64,000 nt of DNA from Candidatus Latescibacterota bacterium (GTDB taxonomy: Bacteria; Latescibacterota; UBA2968; UBA8231): NCBI GenBank assembly GCA_965206595.1, contig OZ242214.1:6720001-6784000 (forward strand). The letters run 5' to 3'. Under the pieces are notes generated by a model. The model did no database searches. It saw only the letters and a program-made list of their open reading frames with translations, and was not told the DNA's origin. Shown here piece after piece: positions 13,572-64,000 of the stretch; positions within the stretch are counted from its first letter, which is position 1; every line of letters starts with the position of its first letter. The position numbers and the translations under genes were made by a program.

Positions 13572-14515
13572 CTACTTGAGGCAGAGCAGCTTCCGGGACT
13601 GCACTCCATCGGGGTAGTACAGACGTATCAGGTAGACCCCTGCCGCCACCGCGGCCCCCCGCTGGTCAAGGGCGTCCCAGTGGACCTGGTAGAAGCCGGC
13701 GGCCTGGACTTGATCTATCAGCGTGCGCACAGGCTGGCCCAAGGCATTGTAGATCTCCAGCCGCACCGGGCCGGGAGTGGCCAGGCGATAGGCGATCTGA
13801 GTTGTGCTGTTGAAGGGGTTGGGGAAATTGGGCGACAGACCGCTGACGGCTGGTCCCTCCGACGCCGCCCCTTCCTTTGCCGCGTCCAGCCGTTCGACGG
13901 CAACCATCCGTACATCGCCGCCCAATGTCAGTTCCAGGATCTGGCGCCGGTTGCGGTTAAGAGGGATGCTGTTCCATTGGCTCACGATCTCGCCGGCCGG
14001 GTTGCGGGCGCGGGCGCGGTAGAAGCCGCTGACGCCGGGCGGTGCCGGGCTGGTGATGGACAGGGCCGCGCGGCCGGCCGAGTCGGTGACCGCGCTCCAT
14101 GCGTAGTCGGGTCGGCGACCGGAGATGGCGCGGGAAAACTCGACGGTCAAGCTCTCGACCGCGTCGCCCAGGATCGTGGCTTCCACTTCCGTGCGGGAAA
14201 GGGGCGTCGAATCGGGGGTAGCCACCGGTGGGGTTGTGATGTAAGGCGACATGTCCCACAGTAGAACCGTGCCGTCCCAACTCCACTGGCCAGGGTGGTC
14301 CCATCCGGCGAGAAAGCCACCGAAATGACCGCATGCGTATGCCCTTGGAAGGTGGCCTTCTCCTGCCCGCTAGCCAGCTCCCACAACACAACAGTTCTGT
14401 CGTCACTGGCACTGGCCAGGGTGGTCCCGTCCGGCGAGAAAGCCACCGACTCGACAGACGACGTATGCCCTTGTAGGGTGGCCTTCTCCTGCCCGCTGGC
14501 CACATCCCACAACCG
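13572..14515 (-). pseudogene. 3' part of split WD40 + FlgD-like gene (2 WD40 repeats, frameshift near 14282, FlgD Ig-like C-terminal domain)
   Basis: RLWDVASGQEKATLQGH repeats; GGA AGT TGG reduced to GGA GT TGG; NFPNPFNSTTQIAYRL...EIYNALGQPVRTL. Confidence 0.85.
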
Positions 14516-22850: not shown

Positions 22851-23951
22851 AACCGTATTGTCCCAACTTCCACTGGCCAGGGTGGTCCCATCCGGCGAGA
22901 ACGCCACCGAACGGACCCAAGATGTATGCCCTCGGAGGGTGGCCTTCTCCTGCCCGCTGGCCACATCCCACAACCGAACCGTTTCGTCATAACTCACACT
23001 GGCAAGGGTGGTCCCATCCGGCGAAAACGCCACCGAAGTGAGCCCGGTCGTATGCCGGAGGGTGGCTGTCTCCTGCCCGCTAGCCACCTCCCACAACACA
23101 ACCGTGCCGTCCCGACTCCCACTGGCCAGGGTGGCCCCATCCGGCGAGAACGCCACCGAATAGACCACATATATATGCCCTTGGAGGGTGGCCGTCTCCT
23201 GCCCGCTCGCCACATCCCACAACACAACCGTGCCGTCTCGACTCCCACCACTAGCCAGGGTGGTCCCATCCGGCGAGAACGCCACCGAACGAGCCCAATC
23301 CGTATTCCCTTGGAGGGTGGCCTTCTCCTGCCCGCTGGTCACCTCCCACAACACAACCGCATAGTCCGGCCAACCTACACTACTGGCCAGAGTGGTCCCA
23401 TCCGGGGAGAACGCCACCGAAAGGACCCTCCCCGTATGCCGGAGAGTGGCCTTCTCCTGCCCGCTGGCCACATCCCACAACCGAACCGTTCTGTCCTCAC
23501 TTGAACTGGCCAGGGTGGTCCCATCCGGCGAAAACGCCACCGAAAGGACCCCATCCGTATGCGCTTGGAGGGCCGCCTTCTTCTGTCCGCTGGCCACATC
23601 CCACAGCACAACTGTGGAGTCGAAACTACCACTGGCCAGAGTGGTCCCATCCGGGGAGAACGCCACCGCACGGACAAACCTTGTATGCCCCGTGAACAAG
23701 GCGATTTCAGCACCGGTGCCAGCATTGTAGAGCCAGATACCGATGCCACTTGCCACGGCCAGCCGTATGCCATCGGGGGAATAGGCCACCGCTCGGTCCC
23801 CACCACCGATGCCGCCTTTGCCCAGACGGGCGAGGGCCCCTTCGGGCAGATTCCAGCGGGGATAGTCCTGGGCACGGCCTTCCCGCACCAACAGGACACA
23901 GGCCAACAAGAAGGCGACATTGAATATTCGGGGCTGTTTCATCTGATTCAT
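22851..23951 (-). pseudogene. 5' part of split secreted WD40-repeat gene (about 8 repeats)
   Basis: Signal peptide, WNLPEGALARLGKG, tandem VAFSPDGTTLASG repeats cut at the insertion. Confidence 0.9.
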
Positions 23952-51730: not shown

Positions 51731-56158
<4,428 letters not shown>

Positions 56159-56343: not shown

Positions 56344-56634
56344 TCAGACGATCAATGTTCCGTTCAGGTCGGCAGTTGGCTTAGCCCCAACGTGCTCTAC
56401 ACGCCTCTTCCAATTTGCACCGAGGAAATAATACCTGAGACTGTCGGTTTCTGGATTGATGATGTCCTCAAGCTGCACCTTCAGGGCGGCCCATTGCGCC
56501 GGCTCCACCTCGATCTCAAACACTGAAAACTGCACTCGTTGTCCAAAATCGCGGCACCTCTTAGCGACACGTCTTAACCGGCGTACGCCGCCATCGGATG
56601 TCGTCGAGACATCGTACGTAACGAGAACCATCAT
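56344..56634 (-). CDS. cas2: CRISPR-associated Cas2
   Basis: VLVTYDV, RRLRRVAK.C, QRVQFSVFE, DSLRYY. Confidence 0.96.
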   Translation of the reverse strand: MMVLVTYDVSTTSDGGVRRLRRVAKRCRDFGQRVQFSVFEIEVEPAQWAALKVQLEDIINPETDSLRYYFLGANWKRRVEHVGAKPTADLNGTLIV

Positions 56635-56689
56635 GGCTGTTTATTTTCCTCACGGGGCGAATATGGTTCTGAAGGGTACGCTAGTAGTC

Positions 56690-57724
56690 CTATTTCCATA
56701 ACCAAGGCGGGTGAGCGTCTAAGTCGCCTCGAAGGTGCCGAGCCAGTAACTGCGCTTGTAGGTACGCGACCAATCCGAGGGGTGCCTGTTCCCCAAGAAA
56801 AGGATGACGACGCTCTACGCGCTTTCGCTCCTGCCAAGCACTGAGAACTGTCTTGCGAGCGCCGTCGCTCATTAAGACGCTGCCGCCTTCTCGGGTTTGG
56901 AAGTCTCTGGTGCGTACTTGCCGACGATTGATTAGCGATAGCGCGAGCCGGTCAGCCAAGACTGGCCGCAGCTCTTCCATAAGATCTAGCGCGAGACTCG
57001 GACGGCCGGGCCGATCTCTATGAAAGAAGCCTACGGCCGGATCCAAGCCCACGCTTTCGGCGGCCGATCTGCAATCGTGGACGAGAAGGGTATAGAGAAA
57101 CGAGAGCAGGGCATTCATCGGGTCACGCGGCGGCCGGCGGTTGCGGCCGGCGAATGCCATCTCTGGGTCGGGTACGCGGATCAGGTGGCCAAAGACGGAG
57201 AAATAGAGCCGTGCGGCCTCGCCTTCAAAACCGCGCAGCCTATCGATACTGTCGTGGCCGTCGCTGATGCGTTGCACAATCTGCCGAAGGCGATTCGTCG
57301 CGGCGGACATGGCTTCGCGGCCAGAAGGCTCAAGCTCGTCGCCGTAATCTCGCTGCGCTCTTTGCAGGACGCTTCTCTGATTGGAGATCTTGCCGACGAG
57401 AATGCTGCGGACGATCTCTTCTGGGTCGTCGCTGGCTCTATATTGGGCGCGACGCAGCAGCACGTTGCCAGAGACCGGTCCCTCGACCCGGGCTTGGAAT
57501 CGGCCGAATCGACTCAAGAGTACAAAGACGATGCCACCGGCGGCACATGCCTGGATCAGGGATGGAGATATATAGATGCTACCAAACACCACTACGGATC
57601 CCAGCATATGGAAGGGCACCCTTATACGTTCTTCATCCTCAATTTTCGCGACCAGATTCTCGCCGTCCTTGGTCAGACGTGCTTCAGGCGTAGTAACGTA
57701 TAGCGTATTAAGCAACCGCCTCAT
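56690..57724 (-). CDS. cas1: CRISPR-associated Cas1 (I-C)
   Basis: LNTLYVT, GNVLLRRAQY, LRGFEG, RNRRPPRDP.NALLSFLY, SLALDLMEE. Confidence 0.97.
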   Translation of the reverse strand: MRRLLNTLYVTTPEARLTKDGENLVAKIEDEERIRVPFHMLGSVVVFGSIYISPSLIQACAAGGIVFVLLSRFGRFQARVEGPVSGNVLLRRAQYRASDDPEEIVRSILVGKISNQRSVLQRAQRDYGDELEPSGREAMSAATNRLRQIVQRISDGHDSIDRLRGFEGEAARLYFSVFGHLIRVPDPEMAFAGRNRRPPRDPMNALLSFLYTLLVHDCRSAAESVGLDPAVGFFHRDRPGRPSLALDLMEELRPVLADRLALSLINRRQVRTRDFQTREGGSVLMSDGARKTVLSAWQERKRVERRHPFLGEQAPLGLVAYLQAQLLARHLRGDLDAHPPWLWK

Positions 57725-58419
57725 GGGTTTTCTCCAGGCTCGGCAAGGTGCGATGCCAGGGTACGCATTCGCCATGCGAGAACCGACCGGTCCATCGCCT
57801 TCGGGCGACACTGTTCGAACAGAGAACACCCACCGCACTTGGCCGCTTCGTATTCGGCTGGGGGTGTGCGGTTTTGCGCAAAGAGTGTCGCTACCTGCAC
57901 GACTGTCGTCTCGGTCAGGGTGCGGAGCTCGGCGTCAAAAGACACTTCCTTCCGCCGTTTGGTTTGGCCGTAGTAAAAGGCCCCCATCGGCACTTCTGTA
58001 CCGGTCATTTCCTCAAGGCACAGTGCTTGGGCGCAGAGTTGCACCTCGTCGGCGCGATGCACTTTGGCCTTGCCGCGTTTGAACTCGACCGGGAACGGGG
58101 TCGGACCTGTCCGGCTTTCGCGGAACTCGACCATATCGGCGACGCCTGTAAGATTGAGCCGAAGGCTGTAGATCGGGAGCGACATTACTTGGCGCACACC
58201 TGCCCTGCGCCGACGCCCTGCTTCGTCAATGACTTGATGCAGTACTCGACCTTCAGCGGTAAACCGATTTTCCTCCCAAAGCCGTTCCAAGTGGATCAGA
58301 GCGCATTGCCTCATACAGTACACCGCATGTTGCAGTGCCGACACGGGTATCGGCTCCATTCCATGGTCCGATCCATCCCCCTCCCTAGGGGGGGACCGCC
58401 CGAACTGCGCTTCACTCAT
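57721..58419 (-). CDS. cas4: CRISPR-associated Cas4; start may be 58425, 58419 or 58359
   Basis: SALQH..YC.RQ, GVADMVE, PVEFKRG, QLCAQALCLE, C..CSL...C. Confidence 0.95.
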   Translation of the reverse strand: MSEAQFGRSPPREGDGSDHGMEPIPVSALQHAVYCMRQCALIHLERLWEENRFTAEGRVLHQVIDEAGRRRRAGVRQVMSLPIYSLRLNLTGVADMVEFRESRTGPTPFPVEFKRGKAKVHRADEVQLCAQALCLEEMTGTEVPMGAFYYGQTKRRKEVSFDAELRTLTETTVVQVATLFAQNRTPPAEYEAAKCGGCSLFEQCRPKAMDRSVLAWRMRTLASHLAEPGENP

Positions 58420-58468
58420 CGTCATCTCCGCTCCGTTTGTTTCATTCCGTGCCCCGCACAGGGGCGTC
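58366..58468 (-). CRISPR. degenerate repeat - 42 nt - degenerate repeat mini-array at the cas7/cas4 junction
   Basis: GACGCCCCTGTGCGGGGCACGGAATGAAAC (58468-58439) and GTCCCCCCCTAGGGAGGGGGATGGATCGGAC (58396-58366) both resemble the array repeat. Confidence 0.65.
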
Positions 58469-59412
58469 TATGTGATCGGCTCGACGACCTCGACATTTGC
58501 CGGCATATCGTCCAAGTCGAGCTCTACGCGATAGTCAGCAAAGCTGCGGGCAGGCGGCAGGGTGCCTTCGCTACCATCCGCTTCTGCACGCTGCACACTC
58601 ACCCGCTCAAAGAGCCTATGCGCGGGCGCGTTGCCCAAGGCACTGGCGTGCTTAAAGGCAATGAGCCGACGAGCAACCATTTCGCCGCGGGCGGCCGAGT
58701 GGTCGTGCTCGAACATCTGCGTCAAGGCATTCCAGAGGACGTCGAGATCGTCCGGCGAAAAGCCGGTGCGTTCGGCGAGCTTGGCGGAGACAAAGCCGTG
58801 CGCCCGATACAGCCCGTAGGGCACAATATGTTTGCGACCCATGGTGCGGTGCTCGGTCCGCTCGTCGCCCGCGTTTTCATCGCTGGCATCCTCGCGCTCC
58901 TGCTTTTCGTTTTCGTTGGTCGCTGCCATGCGCGTAATGGACACTTCGAGTGGCACGATCTGATCGATGGACCGCGCAAAGGTCATCTGTACCGGCCCGC
59001 GGACCTGGCCGCAGTTGATGCCGGTACTCATTACCGCACCGAAGGTGCGCACATCAAAGAAATTGTCGCACATGAAGCCGCGCAGTTTATCCATCTCCTC
59101 GTCGCTTTGAGGGCTTAGTTTCTTGCTGCTCTCGACCTTCTTGTCGTTGGGGCGCACAACCCGATACGCCTTCCGGTGTTGCTCGTTGAGCAGAGCACCT
59201 TCCTGGACGTAGATCGCGTAGCCGGACTCGTCGCCCTTAGCCAGTTCGACGAAATTGCGCACCTTGCGCTTGAGGCAGACATCCGTGACCAATCCTTGGT
59301 TCGTTTCCGGGTCGAGGCGCGGGAGGTTTCCTGCATCCGGGTCGCCGTTGGGGTTGCCGTTGTTGACGTCGAACAGATAGACGAAGTCGTAGCGATGGTT
59401 GAGTGCGGTCAT
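58468..59412 (-). CDS. cas7: Cas7/Csd2 (I-C)
   Basis: NGNPNGDPDAGNLPR, TDVCLKRKVRN, FFDVRTFGAV, GQVRGPVQ, YGLYRAHG, HDHSAARG. Confidence 0.97.
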   Translation of the reverse strand: MTALNHRYDFVYLFDVNNGNPNGDPDAGNLPRLDPETNQGLVTDVCLKRKVRNFVELAKGDESGYAIYVQEGALLNEQHRKAYRVVRPNDKKVESSKKLSPQSDEEMDKLRGFMCDNFFDVRTFGAVMSTGINCGQVRGPVQMTFARSIDQIVPLEVSITRMAATNENEKQEREDASDENAGDERTEHRTMGRKHIVPYGLYRAHGFVSAKLAERTGFSPDDLDVLWNALTQMFEHDHSAARGEMVARRLIAFKHASALGNAPAHRLFERVSVQRAEADGSEGTLPPARSFADYRVELDLDDMPANVEVVEPIT

Positions 59413-59819
59413 TCTTCGTTCTCCTTTTCTTCTTTGCCCTCCTCACTGGGGGCGGACTTGGTGTAGAAATCGTTTTTCTGGTGGTAGTAGCCGATGGCGA
59501 AGAGGGCCTGACGCTCCATCGTCAGCGTCGCCACGAACAGCTCATCGGGCGTGGCGCACCCATAGATCTGGGCGATTGCGTTGTCGATATAGCGATGAGT
59601 TGCAGGCCGGTCTTTCCGCAGACGCGACAGGTGGTTCATGGCGTTGCGTTGCAGGAGGGGAAATACAGACCGCGGCGTCGCCGAAGCCGCCCCGTAGTAC
59701 TTATCGCATATCGTGGCGTTGACCTTGCCACCGAGGGCCTGCGTTTGCGCGTACTCAAAGCAGGCAAATAGCCGGCCCAGCAAATAGCCGGGGTCGGCGT
59801 TTGTGGGATCGAGGGACAC
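59409..59819 (-). CDS. cas11: Cas11c small subunit from an internal in-frame start in cas8c
   Basis: AAGGAG SD before in-frame GTG (VSLDPTN..GYLLGRLFA); 136 aa. Confidence 0.75.
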   Translation of the reverse strand: MSLDPTNADPGYLLGRLFACFEYAQTQALGGKVNATICDKYYGAASATPRSVFPLLQRNAMNHLSRLRKDRPATHRYIDNAIAQIYGCATPDELFVATLTMERQALFAIGYYHQKNDFYTKSAPSEEGKEEKENEE

Positions 59820-61232
59820 GATAAAATTCTCCTTTGTTAAATGGTCATCCTTGCGCCTATTTCGGCAGACCACGGCTTTGAGTAAGGCTACGCGCAGGTC
59901 CGTTATGGCCTTATCCGACCGCAGTCGCATGAGAATCGTGGATAACAACGTCTGCGGATAACGGCGACCTGTCAGGATGGCGCGTAGCATATCCCCAGCG
60001 AGTTGGGGAGGGATATGTTCGTATCGGTTTTTTACCTTCGTCGTGGCGGTCTCAAGTAGGCAGCGCCGAACGCTTGGCTGCTCTTGGCGCGGCCGCGGGT
60101 CGAGGCGCATATCCCGATAGTGCCAGAGGATATGCTCGGCAAACGTCGCAAAGTCGTCCTCCAGCCAGAAGCGAATCGAAATACGCGCTGCATTGGGGGC
60201 CAATCCCAGCACGTGGAAGCGCACACCTTGGGGCAAATCCGGGCGGATTTCCTCCATGGGACGGCCCCTTGCCATTTTTTCGAGAATGGGCTTGATGGCC
60301 TGCTCGCTTGTCGCGTCGTCTGTGTCATTGGTGTCATTGAAGGCGAAGGAAAATATTGCCTCGCTTTGCGCCACTGCTTCTGCCTCCGAGCCATCGGCCC
60401 AGAATACAGTCGAGGCGTCACCGAGCTGCACTTTGTTCTCGTTGGTACGGAGAAGGTGGTTGAGCACAGTCGTATAGGCGGCGGCAGCGTCCTCGCTTAC
60501 GGGTGCATTATCGCCCTGTTTGTGCCCATAAGACTCAAAGGCGTCGAGATTGAAAGAGACGATGGATGCGCCGGAAGACTGTGCGCCACGCACCCCCTTG
60601 ATCGCGGGATGCAGCCGGGCGATAGGGGATCTCTCTCCGGTCACCAAGCAAACGGCTTTGCCCGGTTCGTGATCCTGATTCATCTGCAAGGCCCAGAGTT
60701 GACGTGCGGCCTCGCGGTCGTGTATGAAGTTGTGCTCTCCCTCCAGCCGGAACACCACATTGGCCCCCTTCATTTCGTCTGGCCAGCCACGCGCGTCGAA
60801 GTACTCTGGCTTCCACCATTGCAAGAAACGATAATAAGCCACAAGTCCTGCGTCGCTTTCGTTTTGCAGAGCAAAGTGCCTGTTCTGAAAAGCCTCGTAC
60901 TGATTCTCTACCCGCTCGGCACGCCGCTCTCTGGTGTCTGGGGTCTCGCCTTCCAAGTCTTCCATTGCACCAAGCGAATACGATGCCTTGTCCCAAAGGA
61001 AGTTCGGCACAATTTTGACCGTCCGCTTCTCTGGTCGCGGAACTGAGTGTCGCGGGGCTACGGGTTTCTTCCCTGAGTGGTCTCGTAGGTCCACAGGCGG
61101 ACCATCGGACTGGCCATCGGCCTTCAGGACGACGCAATAGTCGATCCGCTCATTGGAATAGCCAATCGGCGGCACTTTGTTCTCTGTTGCGAGCCGGTGA
61201 TAGGCCCGCTCAAGAGAAGCCAGAATGCTCAT
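59409..61232 (-). CDS. cas8c: Cas8c/Csd1
   Basis: PNFLWDK, CLVTGE, HPAIKGV, IVSFN..AFESYG, LGLAPNAARISIR, GYLLGRLFA. Confidence 0.96.
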   Translation of the reverse strand: MSILASLERAYHRLATENKVPPIGYSNERIDYCVVLKADGQSDGPPVDLRDHSGKKPVAPRHSVPRPEKRTVKIVPNFLWDKASYSLGAMEDLEGETPDTRERRAERVENQYEAFQNRHFALQNESDAGLVAYYRFLQWWKPEYFDARGWPDEMKGANVVFRLEGEHNFIHDREAARQLWALQMNQDHEPGKAVCLVTGERSPIARLHPAIKGVRGAQSSGASIVSFNLDAFESYGHKQGDNAPVSEDAAAAYTTVLNHLLRTNENKVQLGDASTVFWADGSEAEAVAQSEAIFSFAFNDTNDTDDATSEQAIKPILEKMARGRPMEEIRPDLPQGVRFHVLGLAPNAARISIRFWLEDDFATFAEHILWHYRDMRLDPRPRQEQPSVRRCLLETATTKVKNRYEHIPPQLAGDMLRAILTGRRYPQTLLSTILMRLRSDKAITDLRVALLKAVVCRNRRKDDHLTKENFIVSLDPTNADPGYLLGRLFACFEYAQTQALGGKVNATICDKYYGAASATPRSVFPLLQRNAMNHLSRLRKDRPATHRYIDNAIAQIYGCATPDELFVATLTMERQALFAIGYYHQKNDFYTKSAPSEEGKEEKENEE

Positions 61233-61891
61233 CGCAGTACCTCCGGCGAATTGGGTGAAGGAATTTCGACAACCCCCTGTTTCATTTCGGCGCGAAAGAA
61301 AAGCGGCTGTCGCTCGTTTTCGTGGTCAATATCGTAGAGCATCCAGCCCAAGTCACGGCTTTCATCAATCGCTGGCGGTAGGTCGTCTTCGTGCTCAATG
61401 AGTGTGTAGTCTGCAGCAAATTCTCGCGTTCCAAGACAGGGCTGGTGAAAGCACTGCCCGTTCCTAGCGCGGCGATTGAAGATGTCGAGGTGTTTGCCCA
61501 CGTTATCGCTTTCGCCCGCTTCGTCCGTCATGTCAAAGTGCGCTTCAATGGCGTACTCAACGTTGACCAAGACGGTTGCGGCGCGTTGCTGGCGATCATC
61601 CTCAACTTTGGTGTAGAGGGTCTCAATGGAGCCCCTGTTTTTCGCCGTGCGGACAGACCCCATGGGAATTTTCTTGCCGACTTCGTTGCGCCGGATCGAC
61701 TGGAACCGAATCGGCTTGAGAACGTGAAGGCGGTCAATGCGCCAGACGATGTCCGGCTTCCAGTGAATGGCCTCCAAGATGCCGCGTGCCGCCGAAGGCG
61801 TCATTACGTCGTAGGATACGCGCTCGACTTTCATTTCCGGCCGAGTGAAACAGGCGTATTCGCCTCCCACGCGCAGACGTATTCCGAACAT
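61229..61891 (-). CDS. cas5: Cas5d (I-C crRNA processing endoribonuclease)
   Basis: ACFTRPEMKVERVSY.V.TPSAARGILEAIHWKP, IRRNEV, PCLGTREF. Confidence 0.97.
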   Translation of the reverse strand: MFGIRLRVGGEYACFTRPEMKVERVSYDVMTPSAARGILEAIHWKPDIVWRIDRLHVLKPIRFQSIRRNEVGKKIPMGSVRTAKNRGSIETLYTKVEDDRQQRAATVLVNVEYAIEAHFDMTDEAGESDNVGKHLDIFNRRARNGQCFHQPCLGTREFAADYTLIEHEDDLPPAIDESRDLGWMLYDIDHENERQPLFFRAEMKQGVVEIPSPNSPEVLR

Positions 61892-61921
61892 GGACGAACT
61901 CCTTTTCTGTGGTATTGTGGT

Positions 61922-61949
61922 ATTTCAATACCCTCCGCACGGGGGGCAC
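61922..61949 (-). repeat. solitary degenerate CRISPR repeat between cas3 and cas5
   Basis: GTGCCCCCCGTGCGGAGGGTATTGAAAT versus the array repeat; hairpin and TTGAAA tail retained. Confidence 0.75.
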
Positions 61950-61957
61950 CCCTACCA

Positions 61958-64000
61958 TTATATTAGCATCACCTCATCGCCGAGCGCATCCGCGTCCTCC
62001 CAAAGGAGGCCGACATCTTCTTGATAGAGGCTTTGAGTGAAGAGAACGGCGAACTGGTCACCGAAGCGTTCCTGTGCCTCAAAATAAACGTGATTATTTT
62101 TTACAAGTTGTTCTCGGAAGCGAGGATAAACTTGCACAATATAAGGTTGGAGCCGTCGCGCCACCCCGCCAACTCGTTCAACATATGCGAGATCACGCAT
62201 GGCCTTACGCGCTTCCTCTTCTCGGGCGACGATCACCGGCTCAAGTCCACTCTGAATCAGGCGAAACGTCTCGCCAACTTCGCGGAAGGAGAACGAAGTG
62301 CCGTGCTTACTCATCTTGAACTTTTGCAAGAAGTCATCGCCAAGCCCCTCTCCTTTGCGCCAGTACACCTCTTGGAAGTAGTCTTCCATAGCCTCTGGCG
62401 ACAGCAGGTCGTCGTGGCGACCCATGATGCGCTCCATATCTCCGGCAAGCTGGCGCAGTTCAGGCGGACTTTGATGTTCCTCGGATTGGAACGCGGTGAC
62501 AATGCTGTTTGCAACATCTCGTCGACCCTCCCTATTACACCGCCCAGCAGCTTGGGCAATCGAATCAAGCCCTGCCTCGGCCCGCCAAACCCTCGGAAAA
62601 TCCAAATCAACGCCTGCCTCAACCAGCGAGGTAGCAATCAATCGGCACGGCTTGCCTGCCTTTAACCGCTGGCGCACATCCGCAAGGATGCGGCGGCGAT
62701 GCACTGCGTATTGCCGCGTACTCAGATGCACGACGCCCTCAATGTCTGCTTCACGGGCTTGCCGAAAGAGGTCCAAGGCATGTTTCCGACTGTTGACAAT
62801 AACCATGCCTTGCACCGTTTGCGTGAGAGCGGCGCATAGGCTCTCGTCGCTTAGTACGCCCTCGTGGGCGATGGTGACGCGGGCAAGCCTCTGGTGCAAG
62901 CGCGGCGGGTCAGGTGCGAGTTCGCGGACTTGGTCAAAGCCCCCTTCGAAATCAGGTGCCTTGAGTGCCGGTTGGGTCGCGGTGCATAATACTATTGAAG
63001 AACCATAGTTACGAGCTAGTTCATCAAGAACAGCAACCGAAGGCCGTAGTACATGTAGGGGGATAGTCTGCGCTTCGTCGAGGACAATGACCGCACGAGC
63101 CAAATTATGCAGCTTGCGGCACCGCGACGGCCGATGAGAAAACAGGCTCTCAAAGAGCTGGACGTTGGTGGTCGCGACGATGGGGGCCGCCCAGTCCTCC
63201 ATGGCGAGCCGCAGTTTATCGGCTCCCTCCCGATTTGTGGACTTACTTTCGTCAATAGACGAATGATGTTCTAGGACGACGCCCTCACCCAGCACATCGC
63301 GGAAAATCGCTGCGGTCTGGTCAATCACTGAAGTAAAGGGAATAGCATAGATGATGCGCTCAAGCCCGTGTGCTTTGGCATGGTCGAGAGCAAAGGCGAG
63401 GGAAGTCAGCGTTTTGCCGCCGCCGGTCGGTACATTGAGCGAGAACAGGCCCGGAGAGTAATGGGCTTGAGCCCGAACATGCTTCAGAATTTCGCGGCGT
63501 AGGTGATTGACCTTCCCTTTGCTATCAAATCCTGCGAGGTGATCATTGAGCCTATCGCGTAGCGGATCAACTATTTCTGGGAGCGTCGGCCAGTCGCGGT
63601 CAACGGCCTCGCCTTTTGCATCAGCGTAAAAGCCCTCGGTGTCGCGGAAGTCTGCGTCAACGAGGCACGAGAAGATCATCCGTGTCAAAAAGGAGAGCTG
63701 AAACACCGTCGTCTCACGGTCTTTCCCTAATGTGAACCCTTCGGGCCAAAGACCAGTAGCATCTGGCCGAATTTCCAGATCCCAAGTCGAGTCAAGCGGG
63801 TCGAGTGTCTTTTTTAGCCGCTCGTCAAGCGAATTGAGTGAACCGGTCCCGCTTTGCATATCCGGCAGGCCAGCGTGGTGCCCGGCGATGGCATAAGCGA
63901 TGAGTTGCGCCATTGCCCGATCCATATCTGTTTCTACCACGGTGTTGACAATTTTTGCGCCAGCGGTCGCGTGATCCACCGCTGGGCCGCCGTGCAGGCG
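61958..64000 (-). CDS. cas3: Cas3 HD nuclease-helicase, 5' end outside window
   Basis: IAGHHAGL, LVDAD, PTGGGKT, LDEAQ, CTATQP, EAGVDLD, QAAGRCNR. Confidence 0.97.
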   Translation of the reverse strand, partial: RLHGGPAVDHATAGAKIVNTVVETDMDRAMAQLIAYAIAGHHAGLPDMQSGTGSLNSLDERLKKTLDPLDSTWDLEIRPDATGLWPEGFTLGKDRETTVFQLSFLTRMIFSCLVDADFRDTEGFYADAKGEAVDRDWPTLPEIVDPLRDRLNDHLAGFDSKGKVNHLRREILKHVRAQAHYSPGLFSLNVPTGGGKTLTSLAFALDHAKAHGLERIIYAIPFTSVIDQTAAIFRDVLGEGVVLEHHSSIDESKSTNREGADKLRLAMEDWAAPIVATTNVQLFESLFSHRPSRCRKLHNLARAVIVLDEAQTIPLHVLRPSVAVLDELARNYGSSIVLCTATQPALKAPDFEGGFDQVRELAPDPPRLHQRLARVTIAHEGVLSDESLCAALTQTVQGMVIVNSRKHALDLFRQAREADIEGVVHLSTRQYAVHRRRILADVRQRLKAGKPCRLIATSLVEAGVDLDFPRVWRAEAGLDSIAQAAGRCNREGRRDVANSIVTAFQSEEHQSPPELRQLAGDMERIMGRHDDLLSPEAMEDYFQEVYWRKGEGLGDDFLQKFKMSKHGTSFSFREVGETFRLIQSGLEPVIVAREEEARKAMRDLAYVERVGGVARRLQPYIVQVYPRFREQLVKNNHVYFEAQERFGDQFAVLFTQSLYQEDVGLLWEDADALGDEVMLI

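Follow-up and report, generated by a model that had tools for sequence, protein, structure and literature searches.

The 66-nt gap between cas3 and cas5c of a type I-C CRISPR-Cas operon from a Candidatus Latescibacterota bacterium contains a 28-nt element that truly descends from the type I-C CRISPR repeat. The element is best read as the counterpart of psiR1, the first pseudo-repeat of a CreR/CreA-type mini-array that is found in many type I-C cas3-cas5 gaps. We regard it, with a probability of roughly 55%, as a single repeat unit derived from CreR which has been truncated, has lost the ability to guide Cascade to DNA and survives in the promoter and leader of the Cascade genes.

The locus and its repeat unit

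The window, that is the whole stretch of 64,000 nucleotides that was analysed, carries a complete type I-C system on its minus strand, as recognized with NCBIfam models and the list of open reading frames. The cas3 gene (61958..64000, minus strand; HD nuclease and helicase, TIGR01587 and TIGR01596) runs past the end of the window, and its ATG was located about 178 nt further on in the upstream genome sequence. It is followed on the same strand by cas5c (61229..61891; TIGR01876, 183 bits), cas8c (61232..59409), cas7 (59412..58468), cas4 (58425..57721), cas1 (57838..56690) and cas2 (56634..56344), the last five identified with the NCBIfam families Cas8c, Cas7, Cas4, Cas1c and Cas2, respectively. 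A type I-C array of about 64 repeats (51731..56158, minus strand) is transcribed in the same direction as the cas genes, and on this strand its repeat reads GTCGCCCCCCGCGCGGGGGCGTGGATTGAAAC. The Cas5c protein matches the Cas5c structures of X. oryzae, D. vulgaris and M. succiniciproducens with E = 1e-85, and shares 65-70% identity with the D. vulgaris enzyme. It belongs to the catalytic type, a pre-crRNA endonuclease; the D. vulgaris chains appear in the PDB listing as pre-crRNA processing endonuclease.

The cas3 stop codon TAA occupies positions 61960..61958 and the gap (61957..61892, minus strand) reads TGGTAGGGGTGCCCCCCGTGCGGAGGGTATTGAAATACCACAATACCACAGAAAAGGAGTTCGTCC up to the cas5c ATG at 61891..61889. 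The -10-like box TATAAT overlaps the cas3 stop (61957..61962, minus strand). It is presumed to be the promoter of the repeat unit and, in the short form described below, of cas5-cas8c-cas7, and transcription would start at this box. A scan for the sigma-70 consensus over 61700-62300 called no promoter there because no matching -35 was found.

The degenerate repeat unit itself, GTGCCCCCCGTGCGGAGGGTATTGAAAT (61922..61949, minus strand), includes an imperfect repeat-like hairpin, CCCCCC-GUGC-GGAGGG, with one C.A mismatch (61931..61946). It ends in ATTGAAAT (61922..61929), the counterpart of the crRNA 5' handle ATTGAAAC, and lacks the GG of UGGAUUGAAAC. At the pseudo-spacer position stands ACCACAATACCACAG (61907..61921), now the cas5 leader, followed by the Shine-Dalgarno region AAAAGGAGTTCGTCC (61892..61906), with AAGGAG at 61904..61899, which extends up to the cas5 ATG. 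Two copies of ATACCACA are placed in tandem at 61923..61916 and 61915..61908. The sequence-only reading of this DNA had described a solitary repeat in the 66-bp gap that aligns to the array repeat with four gaps and three substitutions, followed by these tandem copies and by the AAGGAG of cas5. The alignment was reproduced exactly, and the copies and the AAGGAG were both located as that reading had them.

The four gaps and three substitutions amount to an edit distance of 7 from the 32-nt array repeat. When both strands of the 7.05-Mb genome (14.1 Mb) were scanned with the repeat by a bit-parallel edit-distance search, two sites outside the array were found at seven edits or fewer, namely the cas3-cas5 unit and genome position 4,282,819. 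The latter is an unremarkable site. Nine sites outside the array stand at eight edits, one of them in the cas7-cas4 gap of the same operon and on the same strand. Therefore the resemblance to the repeat is real, yet it is not unique within the operon. Moreover, the psiR1 loop CGTGC is also the repeat loop of related arrays. The unit has the properties of a single repeat unit (SRU), being similar to its own repeat beyond chance, intergenic among cas genes and conserved in relatives. A search of 58300-62200 against Rfam returned no family, and the only match, to CRISPR-DR6, was below threshold and lay inside cas8c on the other strand.

Long and short forms in close relatives

Relatives were searched with the Cas5c family (61) and 168 genomes of the phylum were searched with the Cas5c protein. 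Including the window, 13 close Latescibacterota type I-C loci were obtained, with Cas5c 86-100% identical to that of the window. All 13 carry a sense-strand repeat-derived unit at the cas3-cas5 position, and in every one of them no more than about 25 nt separate the start of the unit from a preceding TATAA(T/A) box, which overlaps the cas3 stop. Near-perfect 3' halves of the repeat (GGGGCGTGGATTGAAAC) were found at this same position in relatives.

Three of these loci (G150, G156 and G146) have a long form, which is a full CreR-type mini-array. The unit ends there in a perfect handle, G(T/C)GGATTGAAAC, and is followed by a pseudo-spacer of about 28 nt and by a hairpin which starts repeat-like (GTCGCC...) and ends in a T-run. 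Downstream of the hairpin stand TTGACA, a stretch of 17 nt, an A/T-rich -10 and the cas5 RBS. Candidate targets were scored over the 15 non-flipped positions among the first 18, with TTC as the I-C PAM. In all three loci the pseudo-spacer finds its best match within about 1.1 kb at a site flanked by TTC (13 of 15 in G150 and in G156, 12 of 15 in G146), and this target covers the -10 of the TTGACA-N17 promoter. In a fourth locus, G020, the repeat, the pseudo-spacer, the terminator and TTGACA are kept and the -10 and the target are lost. The cas3 and cas8c genes of G020 contain insertions of about 1.15 kb. The TATAA(T/A) box precedes the mini-arrays of all four loci, and a second pseudo-repeat or terminator is present in each.

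In the complete form, transcription from the TATAA(T/A) box at the cas3 stop would pass through psiR1 and the pseudo-spacer (about 28 nt) to a terminator hairpin that goes back to a second repeat. The resulting mini-array RNA is probably processed by Cas5c. Cascade loaded with the product would then bind the TTC-flanked, partly complementary site over the -10 of the cas5-cas8c-cas7 promoter and would thereby repress its own synthesis. The sequence-only reading had suggested that cutting within the gap might uncouple cas3 from the Cascade mRNA; the complete relatives point in another direction, as they are read as a CreR/CreA guide gene with autorepression at the level of DNA.

The short form comprises nine loci, which are the window (G000), G023, G010, G004, G134, G110, G054, G126 and G060. 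Their gaps measure 55-70 nt and their repeat units are more degenerate than those of the long form. The handles read ATTGAAAT, ATTGAAT, ATTGGAAT, ATCGAAAT or ATTGAAAC, and the distance from the end of the handle to the cas5 ATG is 30 nt in eight of the nine loci and 32 nt in G134. No terminator, TTGACA promoter, PAM or target was found in these nine loci. In the window and its eight short-form relatives psiR1 appears to have been joined 30 nt upstream of the cas5 ATG. The TATAAT box would serve as the promoter of the Cascade genes and the handle plus leader as their 5' UTR, with the repeat hairpin probably in decay. As there is neither a terminator nor a separate promoter for cas5, and no PAM or target either, the unit of the window is read as unable to guide Cascade to DNA, a function which would have been lost here.

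The change may have gone from the long to the short form. This direction is favoured by the long-form units, which are much closer to the array repeat than the short-form units, and by the fact that only the long form makes up what looks like a working circuit of the kind seen across type I-C. A deletion would have taken out the pseudo-spacer's 3' part along with terminator, promoter and target, after which the former promoter of the guide gene would drive cas5. The 15 nt after the handle gave a simple internal deletion no support, as they resemble the long-form pseudo-spacer no better than shuffled sequences do (the fraction of shuffles reaching the observed score was 0.19-0.88). Homology of this stretch to the long-form pseudo-spacer or protospacer had looked good by eye and was dropped, as the alignment scores were at shuffle level.

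Trees built from cas5, from the last 450 nt of cas3 and from inner cas3 consisted mostly of polytomies, with G020 on a long branch owing to its insertion. In the cas5 tree the short forms are basal, and the short-form G110 pairs with the long-form G146 (support 99/96). Before the region of the cas3 stop codon, ATGCT is found in all nine short forms and ATGAT in all four long forms (G020 included). This split suggests a single origin for each form and a later exchange between loci.

Distribution in type I-C loci

The survey was extended to 160 more distant type I-C loci with Cas5c 57-94% identical, 80 of them taken from species genomes and 80 from metagenomes. Both cas3 and cas5 could be placed in 130 of the 160. 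A metagenome scan for closer relatives reached at best 68% Cas5 identity, with none in the close clade. The handle-like 8-mer [AG][TCA][TCA]GAAAC is present in the cas3-cas5 gap of 35 of the 130 loci, where about 6.2 would be expected. The same 8-mer is at or near expectation in the other gaps, that is cas5-cas8 (2/150), cas8-cas7 (2/129), cas7-cas4 (7/110), cas4-cas1 (3/84) and cas1-cas2 (1/97). Conservation in other I-C loci, proposed as a check in the sequence-only reading, was thus confirmed, and a sense-strand repeat unit before cas5 is common in this subtype.

For 42 handle-like sites the best nearby partial match was sought with the 34 nt that follow the site. A score of at least 11/15 was reached by 29 sites, of which 22, in 22 distinct loci, are TTC-flanked (about 1/64 expected by chance); among the 13 sites scoring below 11/15 two are TTC-flanked. 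A separate count of TTC-flanked matches gave 10/12. Scores of the accepted targets range between 11/15 and 15/15, with at least 12 reached by 17 of the 22. The mismatches recur at positions 6 and 12 of the guide-target pairs, which are positions that Cascade does not read in type I systems. Most of the targets are on the opposite strand and adjoin the cas3 stop. In several gaps the target and the repeat unit are separated by a short ORF that has an RBS of its own, and these ORFs may encode CreT-like toxins.

Two further arrangements were found in this sample. In L029, L038 and L032 the repeat unit and pseudo-spacer run into the cas5 RBS without a hairpin or terminator, so the Cascade (cas5) mRNA itself must supply the guide or substrate in these loci. 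Good handles with no detectable target are present in other loci, for example L033/L108, L068, L144, L160 and L171, which indicates that orphan units are not confined to the clade of the window.

Conservation of the unit and its suitability for Cas5c

Conservation was measured as the mean pairwise identity among the nine short-form loci, and the 4-fold degenerate sites of cas5 (76 sites, identity 0.69) were used as the neutral yardstick. TATAAT, which is partly coding, reaches 0.96. Identity is 0.51 in the spacer segment before the hairpin and 0.63 in the hairpin, where 33 of 162 cells are gaps. It is 0.85 in the 9-nt handle segment, 0.81 in the next 15 nt and 0.86 in the RBS region. Handle and next 15 nt taken together give 0.825 against 0.69 at silent sites (bootstrap p ~0.004), and a pure relic is not expected to show such conservation. 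As the hairpin does not exceed the silent sites and the handle and leader do, the part needed for a Cas5c cut is not maintained.

The folding of the unit can be compared with that of known substrates. According to the available part of PMC8524198, the Cas5c repeats studied have a 7-bp stem and a pentaloop. The unit of the gap resembles the canonical I-C repeat, the Cas5c substrate of that paper, in having a stem-loop followed by AUUGAAA(C/U). It differs in the C.A mismatch of its stem and in its handle, which has 9 nt where the canonical one has 11, is without G23-G24 and has U and not C as its last nucleotide (PMC8524198). The stem has 6 bp including the mismatch, and U-A is found at that place in G023 and G010. 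The minimum free energy of the gap RNA is -12.4 kcal/mol in a 59-nt context, no better than that of shuffled sequence (z = 0.07), and -15.1 kcal/mol was obtained for the array repeat. The C-run can pair instead with GGUAGGGG, an alternative that competes with the hairpin. A scan of the gap found no intrinsic terminator, and no U-run follows the hairpin. Among the nine short forms the hairpin is absent in G060 and G126 and almost absent in G134.

The handle of the window, ATTGAAAT, agrees with ATTGAAAC at 7/8 positions, and the UGG that precedes it in the 11-nt handle is reduced to U. In the available text of PMC8524198, the Cas5c of B. halodurans recognizes its repeat mainly through U22-G23-G24, just 3' of the cut, and that of S. 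mutans tolerates more at these nucleotides. U-G-G is not present 3' of the Cas5c cut position in the window unit, which has U-A-U instead. The sequence-only reading had supposed that Cas5d could cut its own message about 40 nt before its start codon. Against such a cut stand the hairpin, which is mismatched, faces a competing pairing, is no better conserved than silent sites and has gone, or nearly so, from three of the nine short forms, and the replacement of U-G-G by U-A-U. Self-cleavage or self-loading of Cas5c at this unit is possible but unsupported.

Transcript data were also inspected. Six of the 24 runs are RNA libraries, each with 5-7% of the sampled words. Four RNA libraries were examined, and contigs from relatives 90-95% identical were obtained from three of them and nothing from one. 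One RNA-library contig ends inside the handle without a loose end, an observation that comes from a single study and from contigs instead of reads, with DNA carry-over possible, and it was not used as evidence for transcription, RNA ends or habitat.

An action of the unit in cis, as an RNA switch in the cas5 leader, would be a more specific version of the proposal in the sequence-only reading that Cas5/Cas7 could load over the RBS, and we judge it unlikely. Once Cas5c had cut at the base of the hairpin or bound the AUUGAAAU handle, Cas7 subunits would polymerise over the following 30-35 nt and so cover the Shine-Dalgarno sequence and the AUG. Translation of the Cascade genes would in this way be repressed by free Cas5/Cas7 and released when crRNA is abundant. 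The conservation of the handle and next 15 nt above the silent sites agrees with such a switch, although conservation adjacent to an RBS can have ordinary translational causes. The handle stands 30 nt from the ATG in eight of the nine short forms, within the footprint of a crRNA spacer, but its sequence varies in close relatives (ATTGAAT, ATTGGAAT and ATCGAAAT). Cas5c is of the catalytic D. vulgaris type; nevertheless the hairpin that it would cut is mismatched here, evolves at a neutral rate and has disappeared or nearly so in G060, G126 and G134, and U-A-U replaces the U-G-G that is the main determinant for the B. halodurans enzyme (PMC8524198, available part). The units of L029, L038 and L032, which run into the cas5 RBS with no terminator, would suit a switch. 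A literature search directed at other questions returned no report of Cascade assembly on an mRNA leader.

Other repeat-derived sequences in the operon

The placement of further repeat-like units in front of cas genes is also relevant to an action in cis. A second repeat-derived unit, ACGCCCCTGTGCGGGGCACGGAATGAAAC (58439..58467, minus strand), with 8 edits, is placed in the cas7-cas4 gap, 13 nt before the cas4 ATG. In the 12 related loci it is well preserved in four (G000, G020, G023 and G010), eroded with its handle-like end kept in G004, G146 and G110, more heavily eroded in G156 and lost in G054, G126 and G150. In the cas7-cas4 gap of G134 a less decayed repeat stands next to the old remnant. 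No convincing target for the sequence that follows the cas7-cas4 unit of the window was found in the whole genome. About 42 nt downstream of the unit, the variable first 22 codons of cas4 contain a repeat-like stretch (58370..58401, minus strand; 10 edits here, 7 in G023 and G010), and the region therefore resembles a repeat/42 nt/repeat mini-array that includes the cas4 RBS and ATG.

A repeat-like hairpin, GTCCGCCCCCAGTGAGGAGGGC (59436..59457, minus strand), was found at the 3' end of cas8c, upstream of the cas7 RBS. It is present in four loci, with more than 10 edits here and 9 in G020, G023 and G010. In addition, the cas1-cas2 gap of G150 contains a repeat only three edits from its own array repeat. 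Apparent remnants were seen by eye in the cas1-cas2 gap of other loci. Over the 13 operons, matches at 10 edits or fewer number 26 on the sense strand and 1 on the antisense strand. The bias in favour of sense-strand units just upstream of the cas4, cas7 and cas2 starts is in line with a switch acting in cis, but is only suggestive because the matches are homologous copies of perhaps 4-5 elements.

It is also conceivable, and in our view rather doubtful, that the short form is a rewired circuit. With a crRNA-type handle exactly 30 nt ahead of the AUG, any excess of Cas5c and Cas7 would assemble there on their own message and block the RBS, resulting in a translational autorepression that senses crRNA. 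The units upstream of cas4, cas7 and cas2 would then extend the same logic, or a Cas5c-dependent processing of the mRNA, to the whole operon.

Search for a DNA target

No TTC-flanked match of 13/15 or better to the sequence after the handle was found in the whole genome. Over the 14.1 Mb there are 27 TTC-flanked sites at 11/15 and one at 12/15, and a local search of 10.6 kb for a target of the sequence after the handle gave nothing convincing. CreR/CreA elements have a partial target next to a PAM, placed at a cas or toxin promoter; such a target is present in G150, G146 and G156 and was not found in the window. Nor was a second pseudo-repeat or terminator found in the window, where the RBS and ATG come within 30 nt.

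One of the 11/15 sites is placed 37-70 nt upstream of the cas3 ATG (at about 64248 in window numbering). This match, unlikely by chance (about 6e-4 for a 300-nt zone, given the 27 + 1 sites in 14.1 Mb), could mean that the unit is still a functional CreR acting in trans, with Cascade guided to a target that was missed, be it one with a non-TTC PAM, one of shorter complementarity or the cas3-upstream site itself. However, the site is mismatched at positions 5, 9, 10 and 14 and is not conserved. G023 and G010, whose leader sequence is identical, have no TTC site above 8/15 in their 14-kb loci, and the score of 11 is at the lower end of the targets accepted elsewhere. Moreover, there is no second repeat or terminator to define a 3' end of such a guide. 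We therefore hold a functional guide to be improbable. Were the resemblance due to chance, or the element a common intercistronic hairpin or terminator with no relation to CRISPR repeats, this would account for a folding energy no better than that of shuffled sequence and for the lack of an Rfam family matching the gap, but such a reading is hardly credible in view of the only two genome sites this close to the repeat outside the array, the near-perfect repeat 3' halves at the same position in relatives and the missing U-run after the hairpin.

Relation to known elements and significance

CreR/CreA has been demonstrated for types I-B, I-E and V-A and was noted for type I-C by manual search, as stated in the available part of 10.1101/2023.03.10.532045. 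Like the unit of the window, CreR is described there as a degenerate sense-strand repeat in a cas intergenic region. Its best-preserved part is the stretch giving the 5' handle, which the window unit retains in part. Its full arrangement, with a PAM-flanked partial target at the effector promoter, is matched by G150, G146 and G156 (10.1101/2023.03.10.532045). In contrast, neither a second pseudo-repeat or terminator nor a separate effector promoter is present in the window, a PAM-flanked target could not be detected, and the position of the pseudo-spacer is taken by the leader, the RBS and the start codon of cas5.

Among 1206 type I-C loci, repeat-like intergenic sequences were reported in 34% and mini-arrays in 7% (PMC10120712, Table 1). 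In the SRU terms of that paper the window unit fits an isolated single repeat, the distal repeat of which may have deteriorated. The available text of PMC10120712 has no I-C specifics; the present analysis is the source for the pre-cas5 position and for the distinction between a short and a long form. The per-locus tables of that paper aside, no description of the cas3-cas5 position or of the short form was found in the accessible part of the literature on CreR and repeat-like sequences.

Solitary repeat mimics able to engage Cas proteins are likewise known from the Racr, phage solitary-repeat RNA anti-CRISPRs (PMC10651486), and from the viral Cracr RNAs (10.1101/2024.10.29.618823), going by the available parts of both papers. 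Unlike these, the window unit is encoded inside the host cas operon and not on a mobile element. Viral mimics of the I-C CreR have also been predicted (10.1101/2024.10.29.618823, available text).

Type I-C is one of the commonest subtypes, and CreR-type self-regulation in it is only briefly mentioned in the literature accessible to us. The present analysis adds at least 22 I-C loci with predicted guide-target pairs, which have a TTC PAM, about 17 nt of PAM-proximal identity and gaps at positions 6 and 12. The window and its relatives form a natural series, from a complete circuit through a target-less circuit to a truncated unit fused to the cas5 leader, and this series shows how CreR-type circuits are dismantled or rewired. 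Should the short form act on the message in which it stands, this would amount to a new kind of Cas autoregulation; otherwise the unit is an ordinary evolutionary remnant of a known element.

Repeat-derived elements within the cas operon

The gap between cas7 and cas4 holds a second unit derived from the repeat (58467..58439, minus strand), and about 42 nt separate it from a further repeat-like stretch downstream (58401..58370, minus strand), which falls in the first 22 codons of cas4, a variable region. Taken as a whole, these two pieces resemble a mini-array that encloses the RBS and ATG of cas4. A search of the genome found no target flanked by TTC, the type I-C PAM, for the sequence that follows the cas7-cas4 unit. 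Elsewhere among type I-C loci, an intact two-repeat mini-array occupies the same gap in L180, an isolated case.

In the cas1-cas2 gap of a related genome, G150 (locus L206), a solitary repeat differs by 3 edits from that genome's own array repeat and is followed 12 nt downstream by the ATG of cas2. Inspected by eye, the cas1-cas2 gaps of other loci seem to hold eroded repeat remnants in the same place, and so does that of the window, at about 56662..56635. The coding 3' end of cas8c carries a repeat-like hairpin, GTCCGCCCCCAGTGAGGAGGGC, upstream of the cas7 RBS (59457..59436, minus strand). It has a GGAGGG arm in common with the degenerate repeat unit between cas3 and cas5, and it is deleted in the related genome G004. 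A full repeat inside the 378-nt cas5-cas8c gap of another I-C locus, L044, is also an isolated case.

The array, its surroundings and related loci

At the leader-proximal end of the array (55872..56158) the spacers are abnormally short (7-10 nt) and the repeat handle is partially duplicated (TCCGATGGATTGAAAC). The array also contains an exact duplication of a 231-nt three-spacer block (52033-52263 and 52840-53070). Upstream of cas3, past the window end (about 64206..64178 and beyond) and on the same strand, is a membrane-protein-like gene whose stop lies only about 25 nt before the cas3 start; this short interval has no evident RBS or promoter. Within the window, 126-nt tandem repeats with one common consensus occur at 14284-14513 (1.8 copies) and 22860-23675 (6.5 copies). 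The genome probably has a second CRISPR-Cas locus, because it contains an additional, more distant Cas5c-family match outside the window (C1:2121098-2121682, 116 bits).

Several I-C loci of relatives are damaged. L018 (G020) has insertions of about 1.15 kb in both cas3 and cas8c, and L016 (G060) breaks off within cas8c and continues into repeats. Apparent frameshifts affect cas3 in L019 (G004) and L021 (G010), cas1 also in L021, and cas7 in L205 (G110).

Possible toxin and guide pairs

The cas3-cas5 gaps of seven proteobacterial I-C loci (L029, L038, L032, L084, L087, L100 and L046) measure 280-460 nt, and in each of them a TTC-flanked target adjoining the cas3 stop is followed by a short ORF and then by a repeat unit. 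These ORFs have their own RBS and some are hydrophobic. The short ORF and the repeat unit may constitute pairs of a CreT-like toxin and CreA, the crRNA-like regulatory RNA of a degenerate mini-array.
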